64,000 bases of DNA from an uncultured Chloroflexia bacterium (GTDB lineage Bacteria > Chloroflexota > Anaerolineae > CG2-30-64-16): assembly GCA_963774265.1 (NCBI GenBank), contig CAVZDU010000003.1:128001-192000 (forward strand). Direction: 5' to 3'. The notes under the pieces were generated by a model that saw nothing but the letters and a program-made list of their open reading frames with translations, searched no databases and had not been told where the DNA came from. Shown in pieces: positions 1,245 through 51,245 of this stretch; the stretch's first letter is position 1, and every line of letters starts with the position of its first letter. Made by a program: the position numbers and the translations under genes.

Positions 1245-2756
1245 TTAGCCCTTGACTGTCGAGGCGGCATCGCGACGGACGAGCCCGACCACGGCCATCC
1301 CTAACCCCAGGTAGCTCCACAGCAGCACGCTCATGTGCGGATACACCAGGTTGAACAGGTAATGGTCGAAGATGCCGCCGACCAGCGCGCCGACCACGGC
1401 CGCGGCCAGCCCCAGCAGCAGCGCCTCCTGGCGGGCACACACCGACTCCCCGTCTTCGTGCCCTCTGGGTCCTTTGCGTCTTTGTGGTGAACTAACCGTC
1501 CGCCGCCACGCACGCCACAGGCTGACCAGGTAACCGACGATTACGAGGAGGAACGCCAGCACCCCCAACACGCCCATGATCTCGGCCATGAGCAGATACA
1601 GGTTGGACACGCCGACGTAGAGGTCCGCATCGGGCGAGCCCGCAAAGCCCACGCCGAACCAGGGATACCGGCTGATGAGCGCGAGCGCGTCCTTGTACTC
1701 CCCCAGCCGCATCAGCGTGGCGCGGTCCTGCAGCTGGATGCCTTCGATGAAGCGCGCGACGTACGCCTGCGTCTGGGGCAACAAGAGGAGCAGCAGCCCA
1801 CCCCCCAGCGCCAGGAGCAGGAGCTTCCGGTAGCGCAGCACGCCGATGAGGAGCAGCCCCACGGCCAGCCCGACCAGCGAGCCGCGGCTGTAGGTGAGGT
1901 AGAGCGCCAGCAGCTCGACCAGCAGGAACAGCGCCACCAGGCTGCGGTGGAACAGGGGCGCAGGGCTGACCAGCTGCGGTGTGGTCAGGCCGATGATCAG
2001 GATCAGGAACCCGCCCAACACGTTCGGGTCGACCATTGTCCCGATCGCGCGCATGGGGTTCGCGGTGTCGTCCTCGATGTAGCGCAGTGCGCCCGCGCCG
2101 CCCGGATACCCGAACCGGCCCAGTGCGTTGAGGATGCGAATGGTCATGGTGTCGGGGATGACATAAAAAACGACCGCGATGGCCGCGGCCGCCGCGCCCG
2201 CGAGCATGATGAGCCGCGCCAGGAGCTCGGTGTCCCTGTTTGTCCGCAGGGCGTTGACGAGGACGAAGAAGAGCCCGATGGCCATCACCAGCTCCGCGAA
2301 ATTGCGGATGGTCGTCACCGTAGGCCGGCTGAACCGGAGGCCGTTGGCGAACGCGAAGAACGCGACGAGCATGAAAAGGAGCACGGCCGCGCCGATGGGA
2401 GTGCCGATCAACTCGCGGTCGCGCCGCGTGGCCACGCGCATGATCCAGACGAAGTACACGGCCAGCAGGCCCAGGTTGAGGAACGTTGGCGTGAAGCCGA
2501 TCTTGAAAGGCAGCGTGGCGAACGGCAGGAATCCGATCACCGCGAACAACGCCACCAGGCCCCAGCGAATATCCCGCAGCATCAGGACGCCGAAGACCAG
2601 CACGAGGAACGCCGCCGTGCCATAGAGCGGCCCGCCGATGGCCACCAACAACGCGGCCGCCAGGCTGCCCATCCCGATCAGCAGACCGCGGGCCAACCCG
2701 GCCGTCCGCGCATGGGGGCTGAACAAGGCCGATTCGAAGCGATCCAAAATCCGCAT
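1245..2756 (-). CDS. O-antigen ligase (Wzy_C/WaaL-like) family membrane protein
   Basis: Multi-TM protein with RAIGTMVDPNVLGGF, LTYSRGSLVG, YPWFGVGFAG, SNLYLLMAE and GGIFDHYLF. Confidence 0.8.
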   Translation of the reverse strand: MRILDRFESALFSPHARTAGLARGLLIGMGSLAAALLVAIGGPLYGTAAFLVLVFGVLMLRDIRWGLVALFAVIGFLPFATLPFKIGFTPTFLNLGLLAVYFVWIMRVATRRDRELIGTPIGAAVLLFMLVAFFAFANGLRFSRPTVTTIRNFAELVMAIGLFFVLVNALRTNRDTELLARLIMLAGAAAAAIAVVFYVIPDTMTIRILNALGRFGYPGGAGALRYIEDDTANPMRAIGTMVDPNVLGGFLILIIGLTTPQLVSPAPLFHRSLVALFLLVELLALYLTYSRGSLVGLAVGLLLIGVLRYRKLLLLALGGGLLLLLLPQTQAYVARFIEGIQLQDRATLMRLGEYKDALALISRYPWFGVGFAGSPDADLYVGVSNLYLLMAEIMGVLGVLAFLLVIVGYLVSLWRAWRRTVSSPQRRKGPRGHEDGESVCARQEALLLGLAAAVVGALVGGIFDHYLFNLVYPHMSVLLWSYLGLGMAVVGLVRRDAASTVKG

Positions 2757-45680: not shown

Positions 45681-47468
45681 AGATTCTGCTGGCAAACACT
45701 AAGCCGCTAACTGTATGGCAGCCAGACAAGCCAGGCTGGGCGGCCGCGTGGTACCAGGGCGATAGCCCATGAGCCACAGGGCCGCGCGTCTGACGTTGAC
45801 GGCGATGGCAATCAGCAGGTTTTGGACGTGTGTTTTGGTGGCGCCCTTGTAGCGCGAGCGGCGAGCGCCATGGGCGCGGATCAGGGCGGAGATGGTGCCT
45901 TCGACGCCCGCCCGCAGGGTGTACTCGGCGTGAAAGTCAGCGGTCTGCTGATGCTGGCGACCGGTCTGCAGGGTCTCGTAGTAGGCCTTGAGTTTGAGTG
46001 TGCGACCCCCCGTCTCACTCCGCGTGCAGCGCTCCCGCACAGGACAGGCGCGGCAGGTGGCTTGTGGAAACTCGATCTGGATTTCGCGCGGCTCAGCGCG
46101 GGCACTGGCCCGCCAGCGATAGGATGTTTGGCCTTGCGGACAGATGGCGTGTTGCTGCTGGTGATCGATGTGGAACTGATCCAGGGTGATGCCACCCTGC
46201 GTATGGGCTTGCCAACTGACATCGGCGGGCAGGGGGCCGATCAGGCGCACCCCGTAGTCGGCGGCGCTGTCAACGACGTTGCGTCCCGAGGTGTAACCGC
46301 CATCGACCCAATGGGCGCTGGGCAGCAGAGCGCGTCGCTGCAGGTCGGCATGAATCTTGGGGAGCAGTTCGACATCGCGCTCGGCGGTGGAGGTCGTTGC
46401 CACATGGGTGATCAGGTGCGGCTGGTCGTGGTCGCAGGTCTCGGTCCAATGCACGGCGTAGCCGGTCCACGCCTGGGCATCATGCGCCGTGAAACGCGCC
46501 TCTGGATCATGCGGAGTGACAATGACCTGCCCAGCTGGAGGCTTATCAGCCTTGGCGCGCCAGCGCGGCCCATCCGCAGGGCGTTCGAATTGCTGCGTCC
46601 AGACCTCGGCCAAGACAACCACCGCCGGCAAGGTCGCCGCCTGGCTGGGCACGTCCGCTCGCTGCAGGGCGTCCAGCAGATGATAACCGTCCCGCCCGAT
46701 GTCCAGGGCCAGCGCCGCCTGCTTCTCCTTGGTGCGCGGCAGCCGAAAGCCGGTCAGCACCAGACCATAGCGCGCGGACCAATGTGGCAGGGCAATCGTC
46801 CGCAACCAGGCCGGCCGGTACTCGGACAGCGCTTCCAGCGCCAGCCGGACCGTCTCGGCCACCAACTGCAGCCGGTTCAGCAACTGCGTCGCCGCCAGCA
46901 CGGCCGCCGAATCGGTGCGTTGCCGGCCCCCCTTCTTGAGCAGGTTCAAAGCCACCAAGCGCTTCAGCACGTGTTCAAACATATCTTGGGCGCGCTCGTG
47001 TGCGGCCAGTCGTTGCCGAAACTCGCTCAGCACCGAGCTATCGAAGCCCGTGTCCTCCAAGGCCAGATGCAGAGCATATTTCCAGTCAATGCGCGAGCGC
47101 ACGGCGTCAGCCGCTTCGCTATCGGGCAGGTTCTCCATGAACTGGAAGATCGTGACCAAAGCCAGCAGATTGGGCGACAGTGCCGGCGCACCGTCGGCGG
47201 CGTACAGGGCTGCAAAATCCAGGCCCTCGAAGAGGTTGCCCAGATGGTCGCCAATCGTCACGTAGATGTTGCCCTTACGTCTGAATGCCGCCTTCGCAAC
47301 ACGCGCGGTCGCCTCCGGCAGGATGGGAAATGATGCGGCGGGTAGTGACATGCAGAACCTCCGGCTGAACATAGGCTTGCTAGCGTGCGGCCCACACTAC
47401 CCGCCCCGCTCTGTTTTGTCAACGCCGTCGCACGCCACTTCAGCCCTAGCTGTTTGCCAGCAGAATCT
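45681..47468 (-). mobile_element. IS1182-family insertion sequence
   Basis: Perfect 18-bp terminal IR AGATTCTGCTGGCAAACA / TGTTTGCCAGCAGAATCT. Target duplication TCCA, or TTCCAA if the IR is read as 17 bp. Confidence 0.9.
45699..47372 (-). CDS. IS1182-family DDE transposase
   Basis: RIDWKYALHL, FDSSVLSEFRQRL, QRTDS, GYAVHWTETCD, VDGGY, CPQG, CRACPVRERC and YTLRAGVEGTIS. Confidence 0.9.
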   Translation of the reverse strand: MFSRRFCMSLPAASFPILPEATARVAKAAFRRKGNIYVTIGDHLGNLFEGLDFAALYAADGAPALSPNLLALVTIFQFMENLPDSEAADAVRSRIDWKYALHLALEDTGFDSSVLSEFRQRLAAHERAQDMFEHVLKRLVALNLLKKGGRQRTDSAAVLAATQLLNRLQLVAETVRLALEALSEYRPAWLRTIALPHWSARYGLVLTGFRLPRTKEKQAALALDIGRDGYHLLDALQRADVPSQAATLPAVVVLAEVWTQQFERPADGPRWRAKADKPPAGQVIVTPHDPEARFTAHDAQAWTGYAVHWTETCDHDQPHLITHVATTSTAERDVELLPKIHADLQRRALLPSAHWVDGGYTSGRNVVDSAADYGVRLIGPLPADVSWQAHTQGGITLDQFHIDHQQQHAICPQGQTSYRWRASARAEPREIQIEFPQATCRACPVRERCTRSETGGRTLKLKAYYETLQTGRQHQQTADFHAEYTLRAGVEGTISALIRAHGARRSRYKGATKTHVQNLLIAIAVNVRRAALWLMGYRPGTTRPPSLACLAAIQLAA

Positions 47469-47479
47469 TCCAACTGACG

Positions 47480-47723
47480 GCTGGCCGAAGAAGGGCAACT
47501 GGCTGAGGCGGAAGCGGTCGCGTCAAAGCGAGTGCTGGCGTTTCAGATCGCCAAGCTGATGGCAGAACAGCAGTTGACGAAGGCGGAGATGGCGCGCCGC
47601 ATGAACACAAGCCGTGCGGCGGTAGATGGGTTGCTGGATTCTGACACTGAATCGGCCACGCTGGCAACTCTGGAAAAGGCAGCGGCCGCGCTTGGACGCA
47701 GGCTGCACATTGCTTTGGTGTAG
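47480..47723 (+). pseudogene. XRE/Fis-like HTH antitoxin, 5'-truncated cassette
   Basis: LAEEGQLAEAEAVASKRVLAFQIAKLMAEQQLTKAEMARRMNTSRAAVDGLLD..SATLATLEKAA. The N-terminus is missing and it is fused to a left half-attC. Confidence 0.7.
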
Positions 47724-47864
47724 TGGTTGGGTTCGAGGCCACGGGCCTAACGGCCACCGCTCCAGCCGCCGCCAAAGCCACGATAACTGTTCAAATACCG
47801 GGCAAGGGCGATCAAGAGGAATCACGCGGACCTGATTTCGAGGAGCAAAGAACGGGGCAGAAAA

Positions 47865-47983
47865 ATAAGCAGAAGAAGACTATTGCATCAGACGTTTGGG
47901 TTGACGCTAATTGTGTTATTGCTAGCTGGGTGCGGCGGAGCGCCAGCCGAGCCGACTGCTACGCCGCCCCCCATTCCATCGTC
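47865..47983 (+). pseudogene. Truncated lipoprotein gene (cassette remnant)
   Basis: RRRLLHQTFGLTLIVLLLAGCGGAPAEPTATP has a LAGC lipobox and a PT linker. It is cut by the IS remnant and preceded by a degenerate attC R'' GCCTAAC at 47745. Confidence 0.5.
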
Positions 47984-48140
47984 GCATCCGCACGGTGTTC
48001 AAAATTGTGGTACACTGCCAACTGAAACTGTTCCAACTGCGGGAAGGTGTTTGTGTTCATCCCCCCACCGTGGAGCAGTTTCGTGAATCACGTCAATTCT
48101 GGCGATGCACCCGTCACAGCAACGATTGTCCAAAGTCCAG
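47972..48140 (-). pseudogene. IS left end with truncated IS701-like/NF041680-type transposase 5' end (copy 2)
   Basis: The minus strand reads CTGGACTTTGGACA ... ATG MNTNTFPQLEQFQLAVYHNFEHRADATME. Confidence 0.55.
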
Positions 48141-48161
48141 TCTTCTCCCACGTGGCTCGTT

Positions 48162-48189
48162 TTGTATTTCACAAGGCCGGTGTTACACT
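48162..48189 (+). promoter_or_regulatory. Putative promoter of the cysteine desulfurase/YedF operon
   Basis: TTGTAT-16-TACACT with an extended TG (TGTTACACT). Confidence 0.5.
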
Positions 48190-48253
48190 CATTGCATCGG
48201 ACCTTCCGGGTTCTGTGGCCCGATTTCCGCACCAAACCATCAGGAGCGCAGTC

Positions 48254-48358
48254 GTGTCCTTGCATCACCGCCAAACCTGACCCACCACCCGGATCGCCGG
48301 CCGGCGATCACGGGGTGATCCACATACGTGGGCCGGCGGCGGTGACGCCCCGCCCTGA
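48254..48358 (+). CDS. Putative selenocysteine-containing leader peptide MSLHHRQT-U-PTTRIAGRRSRGDPHTWAGGGDAPP
   Basis: AGGAG RBS 7 nt before GTG 48254. In-frame TGA at 48278-48280 is followed 11 nt later by hairpin GATCGCC-GGCC-GGCGATC. The next TGA is at 48356. Confidence 0.55.
48281..48317 (+). promoter_or_regulatory. Bacterial SECIS-like hairpin
   Basis: Upper stem 48292-48298/48303-48309 with a G-first loop 18 nt after the UGA. Bulged lower stem CACCC/GGGTG. Confidence 0.55.
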
Positions 48359-48420
48359 TCTGGCCTGGCATCTCCCGCCTGAGCCGTCGCCCGCGTATGT
48401 GAGCGACGGTTTTTTGTTGT
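48321..48420 (+). terminator. Attenuator: intrinsic terminator with mutually exclusive antiterminator
   Basis: Terminator CCGTCGC(48384-90)/GCGACGG(48403-09) followed by TTTTTTGTTGT. 48321-48340 pairs with 48383-48401 (19 bp, 1 bulge, 2 G-U). Confidence 0.75.
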
Positions 48421-48437
48421 CCACTTCAGGAGCGGGA

Positions 48438-49634
48438 ATGATCTACTTCGACAACGCAGCCACGTCCTGGCCCAAGCCGCCCTGCGTGGCCGAGGCGATG
48501 ACACACTACCTGGCCGAAATCGGCGCCAACCCGGGCCGGTCCGGCCACCGCCTGGCTGTCGATGCGGCACGCGTGATTTACAGCGCACGCGAGGCCGTGG
48601 CCGAATTGTTCGGCGCGCCCGACCCCCTGCGGGTGGTCTTTGGCGCGAACGCGACTGAGGCGCTCAACCTGGCGCTGAACGGGCTCCTGACGCCGGGCGA
48701 CCATGTGATCACGGCCAGCATGGAGCACAACTCCGTGATGCGGCCACTGCGCAACCTGGAGCGCCAGGGCGTGGCGCTGACAGTGGTGCGCTGCTCGCCC
48801 CAGGGTGAGCTCAATCCGGAGGAGCTTGAGGCGGCTATCCGGCCGGACACCCGGCTGATCGTCCTCAACCACGCATCCAACGTCACCGGCACGCTCCTGC
48901 CGGTGGCGGAGGTGGGGCATATCGCTCGATCCCGTGGGATCCCACGATCTCGTGGGATCCCACGATCCCACGGCATCCTGCTGCTGGTCGACGCGGCGCA
49001 GACCGCGGGCGCTTACCCCATCGACGTGCAGGCCGACGCCATCGACCTGCTCGCGTTCAGCGGCCACAAGTCGCTGTACGGGCCGATGGGCACGGGTGGA
49101 CTGGTCATCGGCGAGCGGGTTGATGAGTCGCAGCTTGCGCCACTGAAGCGCGGGGGCACGGGCAGCCGCTCGGAGTACGAAGAGCAGCCCGAGTTTCTGC
49201 CCGACCTGTGCGAGAGCGGGACGCCCAACGCGGTCGGGCTGGCCGGCCTGGCCGCCGGCACGCGCTGGGTCCTGGCGCAGGGGATGGACCACATCCGATC
49301 GCACGAGGTGGCCCTGACCGGGCGGTTGCTGGCCGGGCTCGATGCCATCCCCGGCGTCACTGTCTATGGCACGGGCGATGCTCAGCGCCAGACCGCCACG
49401 GTGTCCTTCAACATCGCCGGCATCGAACCGTCTGAGGTCGGGTTGCGCCTGGACGATGAGTACGGGATCATGTGCCGCGTTGGGCTGCACTGTTCGCCGG
49501 CCGCGCACCGCACCTTGGGCACCTTCCCCTCTGGGACGGTGCGCTTCGGGCTGGGTGTGTTCAACACGGCTGAGGAAGTGGGGGCCGCGCTGGACGCAGT
49601 GGCCTCCCTGGCGCAGGAGGCGCGCTTCGCGTGA
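48438..49634 (+). CDS. Cysteine desulfurase/selenocysteine lyase family PLP enzyme (class V aminotransferase)
   Basis: AGGAG RBS. MIYFDNAATSWPKP, NPGRSGH, EHNSVMRP, VDAAQTAG, FSGHKSLYGPMGTGG, ESGTPN and RVGLHCSP. Confidence 0.9.
   Translation: MIYFDNAATSWPKPPCVAEAMTHYLAEIGANPGRSGHRLAVDAARVIYSAREAVAELFGAPDPLRVVFGANATEALNLALNGLLTPGDHVITASMEHNSVMRPLRNLERQGVALTVVRCSPQGELNPEELEAAIRPDTRLIVLNHASNVTGTLLPVAEVGHIARSRGIPRSRGIPRSHGILLLVDAAQTAGAYPIDVQADAIDLLAFSGHKSLYGPMGTGGLVIGERVDESQLAPLKRGGTGSRSEYEEQPEFLPDLCESGTPNAVGLAGLAAGTRWVLAQGMDHIRSHEVALTGRLLAGLDAIPGVTVYGTGDAQRQTATVSFNIAGIEPSEVGLRLDDEYGIMCRVGLHCSPAAHRTLGTFPSGTVRFGLGVFNTAEEVGAALDAVASLAQEARFA
48927..48980 (+). repeat. In-frame 18-bp tandem triplication (RSRGIP RSRGIP RSHGIL)
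   Basis: CGATCCCGTGGGATCCCA / CGATCTCGTGGGATCCCA / CGATCCCACGGCATCCTG. Confidence 0.85.
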
Positions 49635-49858
49635 GCGGGGAAGGCTACGCAGTCATCCTGGTTTATTCCACCAGCCATGCCATGCGCATCGAAAAGCTGC
49701 TGGCGGAGCGGGGGATCACCTGCAAGATGATCCCCGTCCCGCGGCGGATCAGTTCCGATTGCGGGGTCTGCGTCCGCATCCTGCGCTCTCAGGTCGAGGC
49801 TGCCCGCATGACCGTACAGGATGCCAGGATCGAAATCCAGGACATCGTCGATGTTTGA
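49631..49858 (+). CDS. DUF3343 family protein (putative Se/S carrier)
   Basis: STSHAMRIEKLL...IPVPRRISSDCGVCVR. GTGA overlap with the upstream stop. Confidence 0.8.
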   Translation: MSGEGYAVILVYSTSHAMRIEKLLAERGITCKMIPVPRRISSDCGVCVRILRSQVEAARMTVQDARIEIQDIVDV

Positions 49859-49876
49859 ACATAACGGAGGTGAACA

Positions 49877-50275
49877 GTGAAGTCTGACGCGCAAGTTCAG
49901 CAGGCGGCTGGCCATGCTGTCGATATCGGGTCTGCCGGCGGATCGTCGGTGCTGCTCGTCGCCAGCGAAATCGTTGGCCGCGGCGATGAAGAACTGGGGC
50001 ATATCCTGGTTCGGAGTTTCTTCCATGCCCTGGGTGAAGTGCAGCCGCTGCCCGACACGATTATCTTTCTCAACAGCGGAGTCAAGCTCGTCGCGGCCGG
50101 TTCGCCTGTGGTGGCTGACCTTTCTGGCCTGAGCGATCGAGGGGTCGCCATTCTCGCGTGCGGCACCTGCCTGGGTTACTATGAGTTGAAGGACAAGGTC
50201 GCGGTCGGGGAGATCTCCAACATGTACGCGATTGCTGAGACCTTGCTGAGCGCCAGGAAAGTGATCAGCCTGTGA
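49877..50275 (+). CDS. yedF: Selenium-metabolism sulfurtransferase YedF (DsrE-like domain)
   Basis: GRGDEELGHILVRSFF, IIFLNSGVKL, ILACGTCLGYY and VGEISNMY. Confidence 0.8.
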   Translation: MKSDAQVQQAAGHAVDIGSAGGSSVLLVASEIVGRGDEELGHILVRSFFHALGEVQPLPDTIIFLNSGVKLVAAGSPVVADLSGLSDRGVAILACGTCLGYYELKDKVAVGEISNMYAIAETLLSARKVISL

Positions 50276-50345
50276 CCAAGGGGTGAGTCTGCATTGCCCT
50301 TGCGCCCTGGGCCGAGCGCCCTATAATGGGTCGTGAGGAGCGTAC

Positions 50346-51245
50346 ATGACCTTCGTCCGCGAGATCGAGGCCAGGACTTTGCTGAGCGCCGCGAAGACGC
50401 CGGACCCCTGGTTCGGCATCAAGTACACGATGAACCTCTACCGCGGCTGCCAGCATCGCTGCATCTATTGTGACAGCCGCAGCGAGTGTTACGGGATCGC
50501 GGATTTCGATGGCGAGCTGCTGGTCAAGACCAACGCGCTGGACCTGCTGGGCAAGGAGCTCAAGCGCAAGCGCGTGAAGGGCTACGTGGGTACGGGCTCG
50601 ATGAACGACCCCTACATGCCTGCGGAGTGCGAGTTGCGGCTCACGCGCGGCGCACTGGAGATCCTTGCCGAGCACGCCTTCCCGGTTCATGTGCTGACCA
50701 AGAGCGACCTGGTGCTGCGAGATGCGGATCTGCTGGCTGAGCTGGAACGCCGCGCCGCGTCCCCCGAGTCTCCCGGTGCAGTGATCAGCTTCACGATCAC
50801 CACGGCGGACGACGACCTTGCACGCCAGTTGGAGCCGGGTGCACCCTCGCCCTCGCGCCGGTTTGCGGCGCTGGAAGCGCTATCGAAACGGGGACTGTGC
50901 ACCGGTGTCATGCTCATGCCGGTGTTGCCCTTTCTGGAGGATGCGCCGGAGAGCGTGGCGGAGGTTGTGCGGCGGGCTGCCGGGTGCGGCGCGCACCATG
51001 TCGTGCCCGCCTTCGGAGTCACCTTGCGCGACCGCCAGCGCGACCACTTTTACCGGGAGTTGGAGGCCCGATTCCCCGGCGTTCGTGAACGCTACGAGCG
51101 GAGCTTCGGAACCCGTTATCAGGCCTCTGCGCGCAATACCGCGAGGCTGGAGGCCGTCTTCGCCGAGCTGGCCGCGCGTCATGGCCTGGCCCGCCGCGTC
51201 GCCCCGTGGGTCCCACCGGGTCCGGAGCAGCTGGCGCTGCTCTAG
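50346..51245 (+). CDS. Radical SAM protein (SplB/Rv2578c-like)
   Basis: MNLYRGCQHRCIYCDSRS (CxxxCxxC), GSMNDPY, LTKSDLVLRD and LEPGAPSP. Confidence 0.85.
   Translation: MTFVREIEARTLLSAAKTPDPWFGIKYTMNLYRGCQHRCIYCDSRSECYGIADFDGELLVKTNALDLLGKELKRKRVKGYVGTGSMNDPYMPAECELRLTRGALEILAEHAFPVHVLTKSDLVLRDADLLAELERRAASPESPGAVISFTITTADDDLARQLEPGAPSPSRRFAALEALSKRGLCTGVMLMPVLPFLEDAPESVAEVVRRAAGCGAHHVVPAFGVTLRDRQRDHFYRELEARFPGVRERYERSFGTRYQASARNTARLEAVFAELAARHGLARRVAPWVPPGPEQLALL

Follow-up and report, generated by a model that had tools for sequence, protein, structure and literature searches.

Selenium genes of Anaerolineae-type bacteria may be switched by a leader peptide whose regulatory codon is a UGA recoded as selenocysteine (Sec). 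The leader in question lies in a stretch of 64,000 nucleotides from an uncultured Chloroflexia bacterium (assembly GCA_963774265.1, contig CAVZDU010000003.1, positions 128,001 to 192,000; this whole stretch is called the window below and positions are counted from its first letter), where it occupies positions 48162–48440 ahead of a cysteine desulfurase gene (csd), a DUF3343 gene and a yedF-like gene. As judged by comparison with related leaders, its anatomy is conserved, the end of the leader peptide, the UGA and the frame read behind it are under selection, both RNA helices covary, and the leaders are associated with a regulon of selenium genes. On balance, we consider it probable that this leader family is the first natural attenuator for the twenty-first amino acid, in which decoding of the UGA by SelB and a selenocysteine insertion sequence (SECIS) would read out Sec-tRNA(Sec), and with it selenium, and would switch the regulon by transcription termination; a subgroup would use a platform other than a terminator, and the peptide end R-(R/Q)-T would tune a race between release factor 2 (RF2) and SelB.

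Layout of the Leader

The earlier note on this DNA, which was made from the letters alone, had described a promoter, a Shine-Dalgarno (SD) sequence, an upstream open reading frame (uORF) starting with GTG and ending at an in-frame UGA, a hairpin behind this UGA, two later in-frame UGA codons and an intrinsic terminator, and every one of these is present in the window (Table 1). Exactly 11 nt separate the UGA from the hairpin stem at 48292 (stem start +12, loop start +19); in folds, A 48310 is bulged and the lower stem CCCG/CGGG is extendable to CACC/GGUG. The third in-frame UGA is at 48380–48382. The antiterminator pairing proposed in the note was also found, except that it consists of 20 contiguous pairs, two of them G-U, between 48321–48340 and 48383–48402 and not of 19; its 3′ strand is the 5′ arm and loop of the terminator. 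The terminator hairpin (stem 48384–48390/48403–48409 plus inner pairs, -21.3 kcal/mol) is followed by TTTTTTG. The distance from the leader hairpin to the ribosome binding site (RBS) of csd is ca. 120 nt.

A simple consensus scanner of promoters and terminators reported neither the leader promoter nor the leader terminator, because only three of six letters of the -35 element match the consensus and the terminator loop was counted as longer than 8 nt. Despite this, promoter and terminator are kept in relatives, and the terminator/antiterminator covaries. No Rfam family was matched within 48162–48440, even at E up to 10, in a scan of positions 46000–51000.

The spacer of the promoter (48168–48183) carries a near-invariant sequence, TTTCACAA, in six of seven close leaders, the one in genome G024 having TTTTCACAA (genomes are denoted by G and loci by L throughout); in G004, TTTCACAA stands upstream of the aligned promoter stretch. 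A transcription factor may bind this sequence and add a further layer of control to that of the attenuator.

Collection and Distribution of Related Leaders

Six genomes of the same family have leader DNA with 77–87% identity. Conserved throughout the seven close leaders are the promoter (laid out alike, the -10 element of the relatives being TATACT or TATAGT), the SD and GTG, the uORF, the UGA, the hairpin stem, the antiterminator and the terminator. More distant yedE genes of the class have leaders of the same design and different sequences. A covariance model (R2) built on 20 leaders (alignment A3) was searched in 151 sampled genomes of the class, and matches were obtained in 47 of them at E ≤ 0.01 and in 21 at E ≤ 1e-6; further yedE loci were matched as well. 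The same search in 150 other genomes of the phylum gave two weak matches, neither of which is a leader. Weak matches at L188–L191 and L193–L195 were dropped ahead of all counts, being without a start codon or hairpin, inside open reading frames (ORFs) or not beside a selenium gene. The final set comprises 42 distinct leaders from Anaerolineae-type genomes, which fall into 23 single-linkage clusters at 70% identity, and the spacing of uORF, UGA and hairpin is conserved in it far beyond the close relatives. It is on this conservation, together with the covariation of the hairpin described below, that the case for the predicted leader being more than a chance arrangement rests.

Each of the 14 relatives with yedE that were tested also has selB and a Sec-containing selD, and 12 of them, G044 and G046 being the exceptions, carry the leader. 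The 22 validated leader genomes of the class sample (the 21 matched at E ≤ 1e-6 and G086) are all selB-positive. No convincing leader was found in the 21 selB-negative genomes of the class, where weak matches occurred only in G097 and G111; the G097 match (L195) has neither a hairpin nor a selenium gene. None of the sequencing runs screened for the stretch contained more than 0.12 of the sampled words.

One of the dropped matches, L191 (G168, ca. 1501–1603, minus strand), reads HHRQT-UGA, behind which lies a hairpin of 16 bp whose loop, GGUU, is at +19. It has no in-frame start codon and lies between a 483-residue ORF and the gene of a peptide-binding protein (SBP_bac_5).

The Frame behind the UGA Closes at a Fixed Point

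Frame 0 behind the UGA meets an early stop (within fewer than 20 codons) in one of the 42 leaders, closes after 20–41 codons in the 41 others and is open beyond 41 codons in none. The corresponding numbers are 12, 12 and 18 for frame +1 and 11, 14 and 17 for frame +2. Counted by cluster, closing at 20–41 codons is seen in 23/23 cases for frame 0 and in 8/23 and 6/23 for the other two frames. The sole exception, L096, has a second UGA two codons on, with the usual stop at codon 25, and is without a clear SD. Nucleotides inserted between the UGA and the second stop leave the frame intact, as in the case of the 15-nt insertion in G004, G005 and G035.

The point of closure is also fixed with respect to the RNA structures. 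The second stop lies 3′ of the antiterminator strand and ca. 20–30 nt before the terminator stem (in the window at 48356, between 48340 and 48383). For 32 of the 35 terminators called, 47–77 nt separate it from the U-tract; the other three are L096 and the doubtful calls L167 and L186. It never falls inside the terminator hairpin. The extension peptides are not conserved in sequence. Selection is on translation up to a fixed point and not on the product; a functional selenopeptide was rejected, the read-through peptide not being conserved in sequence. The pattern of frame 0 is not what would be expected if translation invariably ended at the first UGA, and the frame statistics are the strongest result bearing on the proposed Sec decoding.

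The uORF and the Peptide End

The SD and the start codon are conserved in the seven close leaders and in most of the 42. The uORF is 7–10 codons long across the leaders and 8–9 codons long in the close set, within which codons differ synonymously (CAA/CAG, CAT/CAC, TAT/TAC, TTG/CTG) and an indel of 3 nt leaves the frame unchanged. That the uORF is translated follows from this conservation of codons as amino acids and from the in-frame indels. The codon at the regulatory position is TGA in 40 of 42 leaders; for comparison, 540 of 1024 long frames in the genome of the window end in TGA. One of the two other leaders, L127, has TAA; it also has a disrupted uORF, with a stop codon ahead of this position and Cys in place of Arg. 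The second, L187, has UCA together with a weakened hairpin, while its terminator and downstream genes are intact.

Among the first 20 leaders, codon -3 is CGC in 19 and CGT in one (Arg), codon -2 is CGC, CGT, CGG, CGA, CAA or CAG (Arg/Gln), and codon -1 is ACC, ACA or ACG (Thr). In the whole set, the peptide ends in R-(R/Q)-T in 30/42 leaders (RRT 21, RQT 9); the other ends are RLI (three), R-UGA-I (two) and RRI, RRA, RKT, CRT, HFI, YFI and QLA (one each). From this pattern of codons, the end of the peptide is evidently selected as protein, which suggests an added effect of the nascent peptide. We infer that R-(R/Q)-T probably tunes RF2 release against SelB delivery.

Two clusters (L182/L183 and L096) have a second in-frame UGA one codon from the regulatory UGA, the sequences being HHR-UGA-I-UGA in L182 and L183/L107 and UGA-A-UGA in L096. 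Such paired UGA codons may correspond to the regulatory codons that amino-acid attenuators carry in tandem, or they may reflect decay of the leader.

The Hairpin and the Selenocysteine Machinery of the Genome

In the alignment of the hairpin, 8 of 11 pairs show compensatory changes. The two strands pair in 86.9% of cells, compared with 36–46% when the partner is slid by 1–3 columns, and the covariation score was reached by none of 500 shuffles. The view that the palindrome is a DNA operator was rejected, since the stem covaries as RNA. The apical loop begins at +19 in 28 of 42 leaders, at +17/+18 in five and at +20 to +22 in seven, so that 40/42 are within +17 to +22; of the two outside this range, one was miscalled by the finder and one is without a contiguous stem. 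The loops listed most often are GGUU (11), AGUU (6), AGGU (3), GGCC (3), GGUC (2), GUUC (2) and GGU (2), with AGUG, GUCC and GUCG occurring once each, and 29/42 loops contain GU. In the seven close leaders the stem is kept and the loop is variable (GGCC, GUUC, GUCC, GUCG).

A Sec-decoding leader calls for Sec machinery in the same genome. The assembly of the window's genome is 5.5 Mb long, 84% complete and has a G+C content of 62–64%. It encodes selD with one in-frame TGA, selB and selA, which are above the family cut-offs, and tRNA-Sec; the complete set of selA, selB, Sec-containing selD and tRNA-Sec is therefore present. The selenoproteins were found by family searches and not by scanning for TGA and hairpin: a genome-wide scan for a TGA followed by a hairpin and a long open frame yielded 1140 candidates, and is of no use for finding selenoproteins in a GC-rich genome. 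Besides selD, genes with recognisable Sec sites are an fdhA-like gene (motif HCARL-U-HSA) and two peroxiredoxin genes. Behind the Sec codon of the fdhA-like gene there are 12 nt and then a 6-bp stem with the loop GGUCU from +19. One peroxiredoxin gene has a 6-bp GC stem with the loop AGUU at +26, and selD has a hairpin loop GGUCC at +33. The selD hairpin is conserved across 22 selD copies, with the loops GGUGC, GGUUC, AGUUC or CGUGC, and also encodes a conserved peptide motif. By these comparisons, the predicted leader hairpin has the place, the size and, apart from the missing U in the GGCC loop of the window, the loop type of the real SECIS elements of this clade.

Antiterminator, Terminator and Predicted Folds

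In the seven close leaders, compensatory changes were found at four pairs of the antiterminator helix and at five pairs of the whole predicted structure, and it is from this covariation that support for the antiterminator was taken. The longest contiguous pairing was also compared with that in shuffled sequences, where only three of 35 leaders reached p ≤ 0.01; this is a poor test in GC-rich leaders. An intrinsic terminator was called in 35 of 42 leaders (L167 and L186 being doubtful) and in seven none was called.

The minimum-energy fold of the free full-length leader is the antiterminated form. When the antiterminator strand is masked, the terminator forms in all seven leaders folded; in two of these, L173 and L102, it forms in the free leader too. 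When the mask is placed at the first UGA or at the second stop instead, the seven leaders give no uniform result, and the folds do not settle the sign of the response. A pairing of CACCGCC, within the uORF, with GGCGGUG appears only in the predicted fold of a leader truncated ahead of the terminator.

Proposed Mechanism and Alternatives

The reading of the earlier note, a Sec leader-peptide attenuator, is supported by the Sec machinery of the genome, by the conservation of uORF, UGA and spacing in relatives, and by the covariation of the hairpin and of the antiterminator/terminator. According to this reading, a ribosome would start at GTG 48254 and arrive at UGA 48278 after eight codons, where the hairpin 3′ of the UGA would act as a SECIS and recruit SelB with Sec-tRNA(Sec). 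If charged Sec-tRNA is present, Sec would be inserted and the ribosome would translate 25 more codons across 48321–48340 and halt at UGA 48356 before reaching the terminator; the antiterminator would be blocked, the terminator at 48384–48415 would form, and transcription would end before the selenium genes. If selenium is scarce, the ribosome would wait or be released at the first UGA, leaving 48321–48340 free to pair with 48383–48402, and antiterminated transcription would enter csd, DUF3343 and the yedF-like gene here, and yedE or selD operons in relatives. The layout would then be of the trp type, with the end of the uORF as region 1, the SECIS next, the 5′ strand of the antiterminator as region 2, and the terminator as regions 3 and 4. 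SelB binding, Sec insertion, a response to selenium and its sign are all steps that we infer.

The sign (off when selenium is replete) is proposed because the read-through ribosome would stop before the terminator, as in classical attenuators. Being off at selenium sufficiency and on at limitation would fit negative feedback on genes of uptake and activation. It would also fit one known case, that of Methanococcus maripaludis, for which the available part of the report gives an increase of yedE mRNA by 5.28 log2 on selenium starvation (PMC11097638). It seems to us likely that the mechanism involves decoding of the leader UGA as Sec; for the full reading, a ribosome-mediated transcription attenuator with a Sec-UGA as its regulatory codon and with the sign given above, we would claim slightly better than an even chance.

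Several observations weigh against this full reading. A ribosome at the second stop would cover ca. 48341–48371 and not the antiterminator strand, and with a mask placed there the antiterminator still folds in G000, G037 and L182, and in L088, L173 and L102 no single pattern is seen across the folds with and without a mask. The model therefore needs kinetic coupling and probably a pause of RNA polymerase. Six leaders (G015, G020, G021, L180, G028 and L186) are without a convincing intrinsic terminator, that of L186 having been called at +256, inside yedE, and none having been called in the other five. Their loops are CGGCG/CGGGA at +21/22. In the one leader of the six that was inspected (G020), a C-rich stretch lies within the read-through frame; it includes CCUCC, complementary to the SD further downstream, and suggests a translational or Rho-dependent platform. 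All six must use another expression platform, and the sign in them could differ. If read-through switches the genes off, the leader with UCA in place of UGA (L187), whose terminator and genes are intact, is hard to accommodate. A leader that did no more than sense Sec would have no need of the conserved peptide end, which is also not universal. The loop of the window, GGCC, has a G and no U, as in G002 and G004, and the missing U is needed by E. coli SelB. The alignment used for hairpin covariation was fitted to the model structure. The presence of selB in 130 of 151 genomes of the class means that the restriction of the leader to selB-positive genomes discriminates little, and the leaders are phylogenetically related, so that the counts overstate their independence.

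Some of these observations would be easier to understand if the same Sec-decoding leader worked with the opposite sign, read-through in the presence of selenium turning the operon on, so that selenium would induce its own trafficking and activation genes, including selD, which itself needs Sec. The UCA leader with intact downstream genes would then simply be always on, the six leaders without an intrinsic terminator would pose less of a problem, and translation of the CCUCC stretch of G020 could free the RBS or cover an entry site for Rho. The folds, which are not uniform, include one (L173) in which a ribosome at the second stop leads to the antiterminator. We nevertheless regard the opposite sign as unlikely. 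The second stop, 47–77 nt before the U-tract, keeps the ribosome out of the terminator, which is the layout in which completed translation terminates transcription, and translating into the terminator would be a simpler way to switch the genes on. The free leader folds into the antiterminator, and the available text on M. maripaludis has yedE induced by selenium starvation (PMC11097638).

The remaining alternatives, none of which explains the frame statistics, do without decoding of the UGA. The conservation of the last three residues as amino acids with synonymous codons, and the use of the RF2 codon UGA as the stop in 40/42 leaders, could mean that R-(R/Q)-T slows release at the UGA by nascent-peptide or RF2-dependent stalling, perhaps in response to a small selenium compound, with the hairpin as a purely structural or pausing element; a hairpin 11 nt after the stop would abut the stalled ribosome in any model. 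We find this quite doubtful: it leaves unaccounted for that frame 0 is open and then closed in 41/42 leaders while the other frames are not, and that the loops resemble the genuine SECIS loops of the genome at the same distance. Moreover, the peptide end is not invariant (RLI, HFI, YFI and R-UGA-I occur), and a peptide of eight residues barely enters the exit tunnel of the ribosome. The SECIS-like hairpin could instead be an RNA operator of the E. coli selAB type, to which SelB with Sec-tRNA binds without the UGA being decoded; standing directly 5′ of the antiterminator strand, it could when stabilised shift the balance between terminator and antiterminator. A protein site, however, needs neither the SD, the start codon, the uORF length and the UGA nor the +19 spacing and the downstream frame, all of which are conserved, and we hold this to be a very improbable explanation. 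Finally, the leader could be a metabolite riboswitch of the ordinary kind, or depend on a protein for antitermination, with the uORF being incidental, since riboswitches, too, combine a terminator/antiterminator pair with a conserved linker; the lack of any Rfam match to the leader at E up to 10 and, above all, the codon-level conservation, in-frame indels and frame statistics, which show the leader to be translated, leave hardly any room for it.

Genes behind the Leader

In most of the 42 cases the leader precedes yedE. It was also found before selD (L171 and L175/L198), before a yedF-like gene and selD (L166/L199), before csd and DUF3343 (the window, L176 and L187), before the gene of a double-cubane-cluster reductase of the HGD-D family (L197) and, with a weak match, possibly before that of an HdrD-like Fe-S protein (L192). 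HGD-type genes are listed as neighbours of selenium genes in the accessible part of an earlier survey (Lin et al. 2015, PMC5322559). Several yedE operons also hold a second, Sec-containing selD. The genes behind the leaders (yedE, selD, SclA-like desulfurase, DUF3343 and yedF-like genes) contribute to providing the aminoacyl-tRNA that would be sensed, and the association of the leader with several different selenium genes supports the proposal that it switches a selenium regulon.

Of the operon csd-DUF3343-yedF named in the earlier note, the families of the first two genes stand, whereas the product of the third is only the C-terminal half of YedF (138.6 bits to TIGR03527 against a cut-off of 110, profile positions 80–194). 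The csd product is above the cut-off of TIGR01977; to SclA it scores 393 bits, below the cut-off of 525. A radical SAM gene lies 3′ of the yedF-like gene. That the leader controls a csd operon, as the note proposed, has parallels in L176 and L187, but in the closest relatives it stands before yedE and a TusA-like gene. In G002, G004, G024 and G035 the leader is ca. 1.4–1.5 kb upstream of the desulfurase gene, with yedE (TIGR04112, 485 bits) between them; a small TusA-like ORF also lies there in G002 and G004, the two inspected. In G005 and G009 the contig end falls inside yedE. A yedE gene was not found anywhere in the assembly of the window. Because the close relatives have yedE in between and the assembly of the window is without it, the position of the predicted leader directly before csd is to be seen as a variant arrangement.

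Table 1. Features of the leader and of the genes behind it in the window.
Feature	Position	Strand	Details or basis
Promoter	48162–48167 (-35), 48184–48189 (-10)	+	TTGTAT, 16-nt spacer, TACACT; TG at 48181–48182; sequence
Shine-Dalgarno of leader uORF	48242–48246	+	AGGAG, 7 nt ahead of GTG 48254
Leader uORF	48254–48280	+	GTG TCC TTG CAT CAC CGC CAA ACC TGA, (M)SLHHRQT-stop
Possible anti-antiterminator (region 1) in uORF	48266–48272	+	CACCGCC, partner GGCGGUG 48336–48342; predicted
Regulatory UGA ending leader uORF	48278–48280	+	
Read-through extension of uORF	48281–48358	+	25 codons, then second stop UGA 48356–48358
SECIS-like hairpin with lower stem	48284–48318	+	folds, covariation
Upper stem and loop of hairpin	48292–48298/48303–48309, loop 48299–48302	+	GATCGCC/GGCGATC, loop GGCC
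Antiterminator, 5′ strand	48321–48340	+	within read-through frame
Intrinsic terminator	48383–48415	+	hairpin 48384–48409, U-tract 48410–48415 (T6)
Cysteine desulfurase/selenocysteine-lyase-like gene (csd)	48428–49634	+	RBS AGGAG 48428–48432, ATG 48438; Pfam Aminotran_5
DUF3343/Se_S_carrier gene	49631–49858	+	Pfam PF11823, E 7e-22
YedF-like gene, DsrE-like C-terminal half only	49877–50275	+	TIGR03527, Pfam DsrE

A few further observations concern these loci. At L196 (G078, contig C76, 324–9632), two copies of the leader are found on one contig. The order is selB, leader 1, genes of a nucleotidyltransferase (Polbeta), a chorismate mutase and a DAHP synthase, a HepT-like gene and leader 2, followed by yedE-csd-DUF3343-yedF-like-selD; this looks like an insertion that duplicated the leader. 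In close relatives (L044, 1650–1714; L047, 1620–1690; others), a second long conserved hairpin, CGUGGCGC...GCGCCGCGUGG, lies between the terminator and the RBS of yedE. The window lacks this hairpin, the terminator there being directly adjacent to the RBS of csd. At L058 (G044), yedE is without an R-R-T leader and is preceded, ca. 230 nt upstream, by an SD-driven uORF, MRSWWWPPVRYS, that ends in UGA; the start of a divergently oriented LysR-type gene is located beside yedE, and this arrangement may be another way of regulating yedE.

In the window itself, a DDE transposase ORF (DDE_Tnp_1_6, DUF772; 45699–47372, minus strand) lies ca. 800 nt upstream of the leader promoter. An ORF of 67 codons (47883–48086, plus strand) with a lipoprotein-like signal start (LLLAGC) and no Pfam match ends ca. 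75 nt before the promoter. A 12-residue in-frame insertion, SRGIPRSRGIPR, which the G002 orthologue lacks, is present in csd at 48927–48978. It is built from a palindromic unit, present twice, that includes GTGGGATCCCAC, and the assembly has no further occurrence of this motif beyond these two. The region of the insertion gave a spurious weak Rfam match to mir-3151.

Comparison with Known Systems

In the attenuators of amino-acid operons (trp, his, phe, thr, leu), regulatory codons are read by a tRNA that reports on the end product. The leader resembles the trp/his type in its short SD-driven uORF, in the mutually exclusive antiterminator and terminator, in the leader stop placed before the terminator and in that the regulated genes supply the amino acid that would be sensed. 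It differs in that the regulatory codon would be a recoded stop, UGA, which would need a SECIS hairpin and SelB, in that the "hungry" outcome can be release by RF2 and not a simple stall, in that the operon supplies selenium and not the amino-acid skeleton, and in that there is usually one regulatory codon, with two in two clusters. In a TnaC-like arrest leader, a strictly conserved C-terminal peptide blocks release at the stop codon; here R-(R/Q)-T is conserved in 30/42 leaders, and other endings occur as well.

Bacterial SECIS elements, both that of E. coli fdhF and those of the genome's own fdhA-like, peroxiredoxin and selD genes, share with the leader a hairpin ca. 11–12 nt after an in-frame UGA, a GC-rich upper stem of 6–8 bp, a loop from +19 with G and usually GU, and a frame that continues. 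In E. coli fdhF the loop is G22-G23-U24-C25 at +19 to +22, with G23 and U24 contacting SelB. Unlike the SECIS of a selenoprotein gene, the leader element sits in a non-conserved ORF of 33–50 codons and not in an enzyme gene; the loop of the window, GGCC, has no U, and the stem is bulged on its 3′ side. Thanbichler and Bock reportedly described in 2002 a SECIS-like element in the 5′ leader of E. coli selAB that binds SelB and represses translation without being decoded. The two have in common a SECIS-type hairpin in the leader of selenium genes and feedback by the Sec-decoding apparatus, but here a uORF, a UGA at SECIS distance, a selected frame and a terminator are conserved.

The closest precedent for a link to transcript elongation comes from Treponema primitia, where, according to the accessible part of the report, selenium controls elongation of the fdhF(Sec) transcript by translational coupling (Matson et al. 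2013, PMC3892789). As in the proposed mechanism, failed decoding of the Sec-UGA uncouples translation from transcription and changes elongation. There, as far as the same part of the report goes, this happens inside the selenoprotein gene, whose own transcript falls without selenium (PMC3892789), whereas here a dedicated leader peptide with a terminator/antiterminator switch would control other genes, probably with the opposite sign. LysR_Se and HrsM have been proposed as selenium-responsive transcription factors in the accessible text of Lin et al. (2015, PMC5322559). They, too, are proposed regulators of selenium genes, and in G044 (L058) a LysR-type gene stands beside yedE while the leader is absent; unlike these proteins, which act at initiation, the leader would be a cis-acting, translation-dependent RNA device.

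In the open-access literature of PMC and bioRxiv, our searches brought up no paper on a leader peptide or attenuator that decodes Sec, and the available parts of overviews of prokaryotic selenium genes from 2015, 2022 and 2026 mention no such leader (PMC5322559, PMC9312934, PMC13188914). Leader-peptide attenuation built on a recoding signal thus seems to be new, and the leader, if it does gauge the supply of Sec, would be a selenium sensor of an undescribed kind.

Significance

Selenium homeostasis and its regulatory network are, in the accessible parts of two reports, described as not understood, with LysR_Se/HrsM as the sole candidate regulator (PMC5322559, PMC11097638). The leaders bear on selenium biology, recoding and RNA regulation alike. 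SECIS-based searches for selenoproteins can match regulatory mini-ORFs of this kind. If the proposed mechanism is true, it would extend classical attenuation to recoding, with the stop codon, SECIS, SelB and RF2 in competition; it would be testable with short reporter constructs, and the leader could serve as a compact selenium-responsive switch. For the Anaerolineae-type bacteria that carry it, the leader would be a direct, self-contained selenium sensor, and its position would give independent functional support for a part of yedE, DUF3343, yedF and the HGD-like reductase in selenium metabolism.

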